IMG/VR virus record: IMGVR_UViG_2526164690_000030
Strand: one strand, 5' to 3'
Length of the DNA stretch: 54,025 nucleotides
DNA from: a virus
Taxonomy: Duplodnaviria > Heunggongvirae > Uroviricota > Caudoviricetes
Shown here one piece after another: positions 12,001-15,000 of the stretch (positions within the stretch are counted from its first letter, which is position 1; each line of letters opens with the position of its first letter). Made by a program: the position numbers.

Positions 12001-15000
12001 ATGTTTTTTATGTAAAAGGATGATAATCGTGGCTACTAAAATTAAACTTGAAAACCCTCAAACTGGCGAATCAATCACCGGTTTTTATGGTTTTTCCTGG
12101 ACTACATTCTTGTTTGGTGCTTTTCCAGCTTTGTTCAGGAAAGACTTTATAACTTTTATTGGGGTATTCGTAGTGATGCTGATACTGGCATTCCTCACAG
12201 CCGGAATTGGCCCGTGGATTGCCTCATTTATCTGGGCGTTCATGTATAATAAATATTTCACCGTAAATAAGATAAAACAAGGCTTCATTTTTGCTGGTTC
12301 TCACACAGAAAATGAGTTGGCTGCTAGCAAGCTAGGATTGTCATTAAATCAAAACAACTGCAAAACTATTACCGAGTAAAGCCAAAAAGCAGGCTTAATA
12401 GTAAGCCTGCTATATCAATCACGAATCTCTCTGACAATTCAGAAACATAAACGCCCGCTTGTCTGTTAAATCCGTAACATAATACTCTCTCATGCCTGTA
12501 GGTTTTATTCTACGAGCATATACAAACTTATGAACTGGTTGTTTTTCCCCATAACTTACATCAGTCCTAAATTCATCAACCACGCTACCATCTTTTTCGA
12601 CTTCCTTTCTCACCAGCTTATTTTCTAATGCTGGCTTTGATTCGTCCATGCCACTAAAAGCATCCTGGCCTGTACTATTGCCTCGATTTCCGCGCGGCAA
12701 ATCCCATGAGAAATAAGTGCCATAGTCAGTAATCACACGATCCCAGACTCCAGTATCCCCCATATAGTTAGAGCGCTTTCCATTGTAGGTTACAGCCACT
12801 TTACAGGAGTACGTTTCTTCATTCCCTCCAGCCTTACTCGCTGTGGTTGCAGGGATATTTTGGATAGATGCGCTTACGTCATCTTGCGTTAACTCCTCAA
12901 CTGGAGCAAATTCATATATGGGGGTGCCGAGGCTATTTAAATATAACTTATATCTAACCCTAAGCGCACTTCCATCTGAGAATTCATACGTTCCCAGGCA
13001 TTGGAGCTTATTTTTTTCTCTTATCTCATTGATCTGATTATAAGCATCGATTACAGAAATTGCTTCCTGATCGTCCTTCAGCAGTTCATTATAATCATCG
13101 ATTAACATCTGCCTAGTTTTAGGGGAATTGCAGTCAATTTTGCTAAAATCATAAGCAAAGGTGAGTGTGGGGACAAAAAGAGCAACAACAGTAGCTAGTA
13201 TTGTTGAGGAAAATCTTTTTCCATTTTTTATAAAAAACATTTCATTAACTCCATACCTTACCATCTTAGCCGCGAGCGCGGTCCCTAAAACCCTTAACTT
13301 CACTGCACCGTCCTTCATGCAATCAAAATGACTTTTATGTTATAAAAATAATCAGCCAAATCAACATGATTTAGGCCAAATTTCTGTCAAAAATAAAATC
13401 CACAAAAAGTGGTTGACACTATTTTGGAAATCACAAACTGCACATAATCCATCGCGCTAACGGCTCCCGTTGAAGGTTCTTTTGACGATTAACTTTCAGC
13501 CGAAGCGCGGTAGGGAGTCATAACGCCAAAGCAGGCCGCCATGTGCGGCCTTTTTTTGTATCCGTCATCCGTGGAGGAAGGACAATGGAAAAGATCGCAA
13601 TATTCAGCCTGACCACCAGCAAGCCTCAAATGCTCACTGCAATACTGAAAGACGGTGCTCTCATTATTAACGAAGTAAAACCCCTTCCCGCGTCAGCATT
13701 GGAGCAAAAGCAAAAAATTCCTCCAGCTATAGCAGCCCTGCGGAAAAGCAAATTTAAGGTACTGGTAGACGAAATTACGCCAACGATCTCCGCTGGCACC
13801 GGAGCAAGCCAGGTGACTCTCAAGACCCGTCATGCCGATGGTAGAGCAGCAATCATCGTCGGGATGGAAAGATACAAAGAGTTAAAACTCCAGAAACTAT
13901 TATCCCTGCCGCAAAATAACAAAGGTGCTTTCGAAATCCCCGACTCTATCGTTGATACCGAATACAACGGTAACGGAGAAGAAGTCTACAGGGTGAACTG
14001 GCAGGATATCAGGCCGGAGCATATTCTGATGATCCTGTGTTGCTACGCGACCGTATACCACAACGTTGCCAGTGCGGATTACGTAGAGCAGATGACCGGT
14101 ACAGTCGAGAAAGAGCAAAAAACAGGCATACTCGCTTCGTTCCTTTCCATTATTGGGCATGAAAAAGTTAAAGCAGGCACCTCCCAGCCAAAGTCACTGG
14201 CTGGGAAAGAAGTTGATGAAGATACCGTGATACTTTGATCACATTAGTAGCTTTGTTAACTCCCTCAACACCAGGTAGAAGAGTAACAAAAATATTGACG
14301 CGAGTATTTGAGTGGTCAATGAAGCGTTCATAAACAGATCAATTAGAATTAATAATTCGAAGATAACATCCATGTCATTCACTCCGTTTAATTTTTAATC
14401 TAATGCCAGCAAATGAAGCTGGCCCCCGCATAAAGATTAATGAAAGTCACTTGTCACCAGTGAGGGGATTTATGAGCCACATCCCCCTGAACTGGTGGCC
14501 TGTCTGTTTCTCGCATTTCACACCCTGCATACAGTTTCCCCCAGGTTATGACTGAGAGGCTTTGTTATGGGCTATAGCAGACTCGACGATAGGTACATTG
14601 AAGACGATATTTTTCGTGCGCTGTTTCACCAGGAAATGATTAAGCGGGTATCGGAGTATCACTCTGATAATTTCCAGTACACGATAAAGATTGATGAAGT
14701 ATATCGTTCAGACCTTGCAGCCTACCGGGCGTATGGCAATGCAGATTTGCGCTGGGTATTCCGGGTGCTGGTGGGCCATGAGTCAGAAATGGAAGAAATG
14801 CCCGCCGGGACCACGTTAACTCTTCCTGATGTGGCATGGCTGAGGAACAAGATCCGTGATTACGCGAGCGCGGAACCGGAGATAGAAAATGCCTGATTTC
14901 CTGAAAAACCAGGACGGGCGCTATATCACTGACGGCCTGTCCTCTAAGGACTTCACGCGTTTATTCGAGCTTATCAGGAAAGAACAAACCCGTAAGCGCC

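Follow-up and report, generated by a model that had tools for sequence, protein, structure and literature searches.

Why should a strong terminator stand between a phage gene needed for virion maturation and the promoter that serves it? The question is raised by the region upstream of the mat homolog in IMG/VR virus record IMGVR_UViG_2526164690_000030, a stretch of 54,025 nucleotides (nt), here called the window. The window belongs to the P1 family of phage-plasmids; it is D6-like and shares 97.5% identity with Escherichia phage D6 over positions 12400-16100. An earlier note on this DNA had described a promoter-to-terminator unit in front of mat and proposed that it yields either a small RNA or an attenuating leader controlling the three genes downstream. 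The unit was found to span ~105-110 nt, and its elements (TTGACA, the box AAATCACAAACTG, CATAAT, the hairpin, and the run of seven T residues) all lie where they had been placed. The leader and the terminator before mat are real, non-random, and evolutionarily conserved. In the reading we favor, to which we assign a probability of about 0.5, they form a cis-acting attenuating leader of the mat unit that also releases an abundant small RNA. The attenuating leader and the small RNA are two faces of one unit and do not exclude each other; sequence alone cannot separate them.

The terminator (13533..13557, plus strand) was recovered by consensus and strict scans as well as by folding and consists of a 7-base-pair (bp) stem, a 5-nt loop, and a U7 tail. 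The hairpin AGGCCGC-CATGT-GCGGCCT (13533-13551; predicted free energy, -12.5 kcal/mol; six GC pairs) is perfect and runs into seven T residues (13551-13557), so that by sequence it has the GC-rich stem-loop and immediate U tract of an intrinsic terminator. As the earlier note had held, it stands directly before the gene at 13585 (mat); the consensus scan ranks it first among terminator-like sites, and it is one of only three strict intrinsic terminators on both strands of the 54 kilobases (kb), at 10191, 13533, and 25051. The site at 25051-25072, AAACGCCGC-AGTA-GCGGCGTTT plus a T run, is palindromic and probably a bidirectional terminator; the covariance model of the leader (see below) matches it on both strands (E about 1e-3) via the terminator part alone.

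Between the U tract and the mat start codon (ATG, 13585, plus strand), only 27 nt remain, including the Shine-Dalgarno sequence GGAGGA (13573-13578, plus strand), and the promoter scan calls none in that gap. Because the gap leaves no room for a promoter and none is called, all mat transcription must pass the terminator. Genes mat, 25, and 26 are known to be essential in P1 (PMC10695390). Given that mat is essential and has no other promoter, read-through must occur, and an attenuating leader follows logically.

Most likely, the leader and terminator act as a gate on mat expression. The box at 13428-13440 and the -10 hexamer at 13443-13448 would start transcription near 13455, and the first ~65 nt would fold into a three-way junction with a closing stem that takes in the 5' end. 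The terminator, thirteen nt further on, would halt most polymerases and release a compact RNA of ~104 nt, and the polymerases that read through would be the only ones to reach the Shine-Dalgarno sequence and the mat start 27 nt on. Since most transcripts should end at the terminator, the compact RNA is expected to be abundant. By the same scheme, mat and probably genes 26 and 25 would receive a small fraction of the promoter output or would be expressed only when read-through is raised. Such an arrangement would keep a potentially harmful, terminase-nuclease-like protein switched off in the plasmid-prophage state and scarce in lytic growth.

Conservation of the layout was assessed with Mat homologs gathered from phage, plasmid, genome, and viral-contig collections. 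The promoter, folded leader, GC hairpin with U-rich tail, Shine-Dalgarno sequence, and start codon are kept within the ~110 nt before mat in all sampled enterobacterial and Xenorhabdus lineages, even where Mat identity falls to 34%. These lineages are the D6-like, 85%-identity, L041, Leclercia, Klebsiella-type, L051, L065, L070, Xenorhabdus, P1/P7, and Cronobacter JK004 groups. An equivalent of the hairpin and U tract is present in all 22 representative leaders, with hairpin energies of -10 to -14 kcal/mol across lineages, a U-rich tail, and an almost invariant stem, GGCCGC/GCGGCC. The upstream neighbor, by comparison, varies, being a divergent simB-like gene in D6 and the co-oriented ref gene in P1, Leclercia, and the Klebsiella type. 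In a Vibrio relative with 25-28% Mat identity, the ref-mat spacer is just 71 nt long and the hairpin is absent. The element therefore travels with mat, given that the upstream gene differs and that the Vibrio ref-mat spacer lacks the hairpin.

The position behind ref invites a passive explanation, in which a constitutive terminator blocks stray transcription (for example, from ref) and the folded domain guards the mat mRNA from 5'-end-dependent decay, with no factor or signal involved. The co-oriented ref in the P1, Leclercia, Klebsiella-type, and Vibrio genomes and the lack of a predicted antiterminator are compatible with such an insulator, and 5'-terminal stems are known mRNA stabilizers. 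However, the promoter sits between ref and the hairpin, so that the hairpin also stops mat's own transcripts; D6-like genomes retain the element in the absence of a co-oriented upstream gene; and the Vibrio relative has no hairpin precisely where mat lies directly behind ref. Insulation would also leave the invariance of the loops, not of the stems alone, to be accounted for, and we regard this explanation as unlikely.

Further evidence for the element comes from covariance models and sequence covariation. The first covariance model, built from the D6 clade alone, detected the Leclercia, Klebsiella-type, L051, L065, and L070 leaders with E-values of 1e-7 to 1e-10 and the Xenorhabdus leader with about 1e-3; with the second model, built from the matches of the first, Xenorhabdus reached about 1e-11. 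The covariance-model match in the window covers 13462-13562 (E = 3e-31) and is a single copy. When viral contigs were scanned with a loose pattern and the loci then scored with the model, 4 of 80 were real, all in mat contigs already known; the 752 kb of motif-enriched viral DNA yielded no false positives. Alignment of 16 leaders with MAFFT and RNAalifold recovered the terminator alone and left the stems out of register; a covariance-model alignment was used instead.

Covariation was counted in this model-guided alignment of 16 distinct leaders, representing roughly eight independent lineages. Standard pairs fill 92.9% of the cells, and changes on both sides occur in 12 of the 22 pairs, compared with 4.1 +/- 1.3 in shuffled alignments, none of 500 of which reached the observed value; when the 3' partners were slid by 1-3 columns, three or fewer such changes remained. 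The closing stem, here stem B, covaries at all seven pairs, with variants GGCUCCC/GGGAGUC, GGUUCCC/GGGAGCC, UGUUCCC/GGGAACA, GCGAACC/GGUUCGU, and UCUGG/CCAGA. G-U pairs are frequent, and the structure therefore belongs to the plus-strand RNA. Judged by the aligned sequences, the leader has the compensatory substitutions across lineages by which a structured RNA is recognized. It appears to represent a previously undescribed RNA family, though its general kind (leader-attenuator or small RNA) is a known one. No family of Rfam 15 matches it at gathering thresholds; the best hit at E up to 10 is isrK, with 14.7 bits against a threshold of 50 (E = 0.8), and involves only the terminator part.

The predicted architecture of the RNA, all on the plus strand, is as follows. 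Transcription is predicted to start at 13454-13458, 6-10 nt after the -10 hexamer, and the 5' tail GCGCUAAC occupies 13454..13461. From the end of the -10 hexamer to the end of the T run there are 109 nt, and the predicted transcript measures ~104 nt up to the U tract. The three-way-junction core (13462..13519), identified by folding, covariation, and the covariance-model match, consists of stem B (13462-13468 paired with 13513-13519) enclosing hairpin H1 (13471-13478 paired with 13491-13498), which has the conserved 12-nt loop CUUUUGACGAUU at 13479-13490, and the 4-bp hairpin H2 (13499-13502 paired with 13508-13511), which contains the invariant GCGCGG at 13505-13510. A single-stranded linker of 13 nt, AUAACGCCAAAGC (13520..13532), leads to the terminator; its sequence varies by lineage, and its A-rich end can pair with the U tail. 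The 5' tail can lengthen the closing stem by pairing with 13521-13527, and the equivalent outer helix in L041 is a perfect 6 bp. Folding from starts at 13454-13458 gave pair probabilities of 0.8-0.99, and 0.99 for the terminator; with a start at 13451-13453, an alternative helix, CGCGCU/AGCGCG, competes with stem B. Fold prediction, proposed in the earlier note as a check, thus returns a three-way junction, a linker, and a terminator. Of the two functions proposed there, the conserved, covarying RNA always joined to the front of mat agrees with both, whereas no switch in the form of an antiterminator is visible.

The unpaired residues UUUUG.C.A.U of the H1 loop and GCGCGG are invariant and are kept where promoters, 5' tails, and linkers have diverged. 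Because these loop residues and the terminator stem remain invariant in such lineages, the sequences suggest recognition of the junction by a partner, be it a protein, RNA polymerase, or RNA, beyond mere folding. Tentatively, the junction could be a docking site for a factor that drives read-through of the terminator, by put-like or protein-dependent processive antitermination of a P1-family kind, or it could be bound by Mat itself in an autoregulatory loop; we consider these specific versions doubtful. The put RNAs of phage HK022 are the closest known elements in form: they are promoter-proximal, about 65-70 nt long, with two hairpins upstream of terminators, and act in cis as polymerase-binding antiterminators. 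The mat leader differs from put in that a closing stem surrounds its two hairpins and its terminator comes within 13 nt; the two share no sequence similarity, and the mat leader is known from its sequence alone. Constitutive antitermination of the put type would also make the conserved terminator pointless unless it were conditional.

The same invariant residues are compatible, as far as sequence goes, with binding of a ligand or protein, and the junction could then be the aptamer of a riboswitch-like or protein-responsive attenuator that sets termination. Like purine-type riboswitch leaders, the mat leader combines a three-way junction bearing conserved unpaired junction and loop residues with a subsequent intrinsic terminator in the 5' untranslated region (UTR); moreover, the terminator stem is unusually invariant, and GCGCGG could pair with CCGC of that stem. 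This GCGG/CCGC pairing, however, is just 4 bp long, and neither terminator arm is sequestered by a stable alternative in the full or the nascent transcript. The 13-nt unstructured linker parts the junction from the terminator, no Rfam riboswitch matches the leader, and, in contrast to the purine-type leaders, there is no mutually exclusive antiterminator and H2 has only 4 bp. A riboswitch-like device is, on this evidence, quite improbable.

A different emphasis would make the ~104-nt RNA the main product, a small RNA acting in trans late in infection through its U-rich loop as a seed, possibly with Hfq or ProQ; its location before mat would then be of lesser importance, or else it would target read-through mat mRNA, much as IsrK targets its own long transcript. 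The predicted RNA is compact and, in the folding model, stable looking, with both ends in helices, and its invariant single-stranded loop residues have outlasted the promoter, linker, and 5' tail. A strong terminator should render such a short RNA abundant, and U7 together with the loop CUUUUGACGAUU provides the tail of at least six U and the conserved single-stranded seed typical of Hfq-dependent RNAs. The window also offers a precedent. An isrK-family RNA (10134-10212, plus strand; 62.7 bits in Rfam) has the same order of promoter, short RNA, terminator, and downstream genes; its predicted fold (z = -6.4) is one long hairpin plus terminator (the 10191 site), and it is followed directly by a C4 antisense RNA (10256-10343, plus strand; 77.1 bits), in an immI-like region before icd/ant. 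IsrK (RF01394), known from Gifsy-1 and P1-like immI regions, resembles the mat leader in its promoter, short terminated RNA, and read-through into downstream genes; it differs in having a single long hairpin plus terminator where the mat leader has a three-way junction.

Against a primarily trans-acting role, the leader RNA never occurs away from mat in the material scanned. Sequences complementary to the loop are not overrepresented in the window (10 sites, against 6.2 +/- 2.6 expected), and no complementary target was identified in the window or at the mat start, host targets lying outside the screen. Unlike the pairing of IsrK, that of the leader with its own downstream mRNA does not rise above chance: the loop pairs with the mat start no better than shuffled loops do (fraction at least as good, 0.15-0.70) and is often beaten elsewhere in mat. 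Pairing of the loop with the mat translation start had looked promising by eye, with an apparent G/A versus C/U covariation, and was ruled out by this shuffled-loop test. A 9-nt loop match in the 5' UTR behind the box promoter at 32540 is within chance. The U tail is, furthermore, poor in the L051 clade. We consider a small RNA as the main product possible rather than probable.

It could also be asked whether the leader is coding. In P1, an in-frame ATG lies 37 codons upstream of the conserved start, and the annotated mat coding sequence, beginning at 2716, spans the leader, as if the region encoded an N-terminal extension of Mat. In the window, by contrast, the open frame extends upstream no farther than GTG 13543, within the hairpin, and in JK004 the frame meets a stop before the hairpin. 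All Mat homologs, of about 217 amino acids (aa), align from M-x-(K/Q)-K-I just after the hairpin, and substitutions in the leader track base pairing, not codons. An N-terminal extension is hardly credible. The GenBank mat coding sequence of P1 (2716-3468 in NC_005856; 1217-1969 in L002) runs through the leader and hairpin, and no terminator is annotated there. The homologs align from ATG 2827 (M-D-K-K-I), and from these alignments the P1 start has probably been drawn 37 codons too far upstream.

On the plus strand, a -35-like hexamer, TTGACA (13413..13418), the box AAATCACAAACTG (13428..13440), and, 2 nt after it, the -10 hexamer CATAAT (13443..13448) precede the leader. Because TTGACA lies 24 nt from CATAAT, it is not usable as a canonical sigma-70 -35 element, for which the hexamers would be 16-18 nt apart, and the promoter scan calls none here. 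TTGAC is nonetheless retained by almost every lineage, its distance from the box varying between 9 and 12 nt. The box itself recurs on the plus strand, exactly at 48548 and in similar form at 29766, 32540, 39543, and 41173. The pattern AAAT[CA]ACA[AC]A[CG]T occurs six times on the plus strand and never on the minus strand of the whole window, against 0.06 expected under a first-order Markov model; it was drawn up after the sites had been seen, and the excess is nonetheless very large. The box plus 2 nt plus a -10-like hexamer recurs at 29766, 32540, and 48548, whereas the hexamer is poor at 41173 and absent at 39543. Behind the four boxes checked (29766, 32540, 41173, and 48548) lie genes for a PAAR-like protein, phrog_1014 (565 aa, unknown function), a PmgB-like head protein, and an R/S tail fiber, respectively, so that morphogenesis genes follow three of the four, with phrog_1014 as the exception. 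The box before mat is recognizable in other lineages; in the Klebsiella type, AAAGTACAAACCG-CA-TAAAAT aligns with AAATCACAAACTG-CA-CATAAT.

At the equivalent position, P1 carries the annotated promoter Pmat (-35 TTGACA, -10 CAGAAT) and the late promoter LPmat, with the '-22' element AAGTGACTT (NC_005856), whose place is taken by the box in the window. In both phages, mat lies behind a -35-like TTGACA, a phage-specific element located between the -35 and -10 positions, and a -10 hexamer; next come a folded leader of ~100 nt and, before the conserved Mat start, a hairpin with U tract. The P1 box differs in being a 9-bp inverted repeat, 4 nt from the -10 hexamer with a -35 spacer of 19 nt, compared with a 13-mer, 2 nt, and 24 nt in the window. 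As the box recurs and its position matches that of LPmat, we accept a late-type promoter, and our best reading of these sequences is a phage-specific late-type promoter that may depend on Lpa, with host SspA. Of the late-promoter-like element described in the earlier note, the late type is thus supported and TTGACA as a canonical -35 hexamer is not. In P1, mat is reportedly under dual control of C1 and Lpa.

In logic, the nearest known arrangement is the lambda pR'-tR' region, with its 6S RNA and Q antitermination, where a late promoter produces a short terminated leader before the late genes, read-through is needed, and a regulatory DNA element likewise lies between -35 and -10. Unlike in lambda, a leader-terminator follows just one of the window's box promoters, which number at least five, and the mat leader is a conserved covarying structure. 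The box promoters at 32540 and 48548 have plain short leaders of 45-50 nt with no terminator; since these leaders are plain and the model finds one copy in the window, the device is specific to mat. The P1-family activator Lpa is described as acting at initiation, unlike lambda Q; we know of no Q-like factor of P1-family phages, and no search for one was made in the window.

Several observations weigh against the attenuating leader as we favor it. No structure competing with the terminator appears in full or nascent transcripts, and the 5' arm of the hairpin is unpaired in transcripts ending at 13539 or 13544, so that nothing in the fold points to a regulated switch; the terminator may be no more than a constitutive damper. 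The start point, termination in vivo, and partial or factor-assisted read-through are predictions. In the L051 clade (~50% Mat identity; loci L051-L069, about 1455-1482), which retains the three-way junction and the stem, the U tract is interrupted (CCUUUCGCCUUUUC), with 3-5 U in the first 8 nt. Given this interruption, termination there may, by sequence, be weaker or require a factor. The alignment used for counting covariation had itself been fitted to the model. The leaders of the P1 clade match the model over their full length and at the right place with E about 2 only, which is not significant, so that the P1 and D6-like sequences cannot be aligned by the covariance model. Because of this score, homology of the two leaders rests on position, on an identical topology of the minimum-free-energy fold, and on compensatory differences between the closing stems of P1 and JK004, GCCCGGUAC/GUACCGGGC versus GCCCGGUGC/GCGCCGGGC. 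Finally, a full-text literature search found no mention of the mat leader, though the primary P1 or D6 papers may contain one.

The product of the gated gene would give a reason for tight control. No Pfam domain is recognized in Mat, and the PHROG to which it belongs has no known function. An AlphaFold model based on 25 homologs (mean predicted local distance difference test score [pLDDT], 80; predicted template modeling score [pTM], 0.73) predicts a terminase-nuclease or RNase H-like fold, of the superfamily that includes the junction-resolving enzyme RuvC, and Foldseek agrees weakly (E about 2e-3). The Mat alignment shows no clear counterpart of the first catalytic Asp usually found on strand 1, making nuclease activity uncertain. 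Were Mat a DNA-processing nuclease, it would make sense to have a terminator close to the promoter, curbing leakage in the plasmid-prophage state and limiting late dosage; the predicted fold suggests a reason for tight control.

P1 and related phages, which have long served as models, are widespread as phage-plasmids, many with resistance genes; Mat homologs occur in 988 plasmid records, and the D6-type spacer occurs in 121. A conserved leader and terminator before an essential maturation gene are nevertheless missing from the P1 and D6 annotations and from Rfam, and the P1 mat coding sequence, probably 37 codons too long as drawn, would need re-annotation. Mutants of the hairpin and the loops would offer a defined handle on Mat dosage and timing. 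A read-through factor or Mat autoregulation, if real, would constitute a new class of phage regulatory RNA, one that gates a maturation nuclease in a well-studied model phage.

The leader unit (13413-13557) sits in a 266-nt divergent spacer between mat and a simB-like gene (12419-13318, minus strand; D6 orf79, 'similar to P1 simB'). The D6 record carries no annotation in the spacer before mat, and usually neither do the 121 plasmid records with the same spacer. The mat homolog of the window (13585..14238, plus strand; 217 aa) is 99% identical to D6 orf78, 'similar to P1 gene mat' (maturation of virion). According to the D6 annotation, it is followed on its 3' side by homologs of gene 26 (baseplate) and then gene 25 (tail). 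Control of all three genes, as the earlier note had it, is supported for mat, which has no other promoter; for 26 and 25 it is presumed. A 330-nt gap lies between mat and 26 in the window (14239-14566). There, D6 annotates just two tiny minus-strand open reading frames (ORFs). In the Leclercia and Klebsiella-type relatives, by contrast, the three genes overlap one another, and the gap of the window may harbor an insertion or an internal promoter.

No match to the P1 C1 operator consensus was found anywhere in the window. A 14-mer, TTTGTGTTAGAAAA, is present in three exact copies, at 8926 (plus strand), 32463 (plus strand), and 22572 (minus strand), and in near-copies at 9597 (minus strand) and 13334 (plus strand), and is a candidate repressor operator of D6 type. 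Of the near-copies, TTTATGTTATAAAA (13334-13347) is located immediately upstream of the divergent simB-like gene and precedes the TTGACA of mat by 66 nt. Directly after gene 25, where D6 has other genes, an RNA-OUT match (98.8 bits; 17482-17551, plus strand) adjoins a 402-aa ORF (16281-17489, minus strand), and the two probably constitute an IS10-type insertion. The phage-plasmid also seems to carry a class 1 integron-type resistance cassette, as an AAC_AAD_leader/attI Rfam match (74.2 bits) was detected at 3395-3473 on the minus strand.

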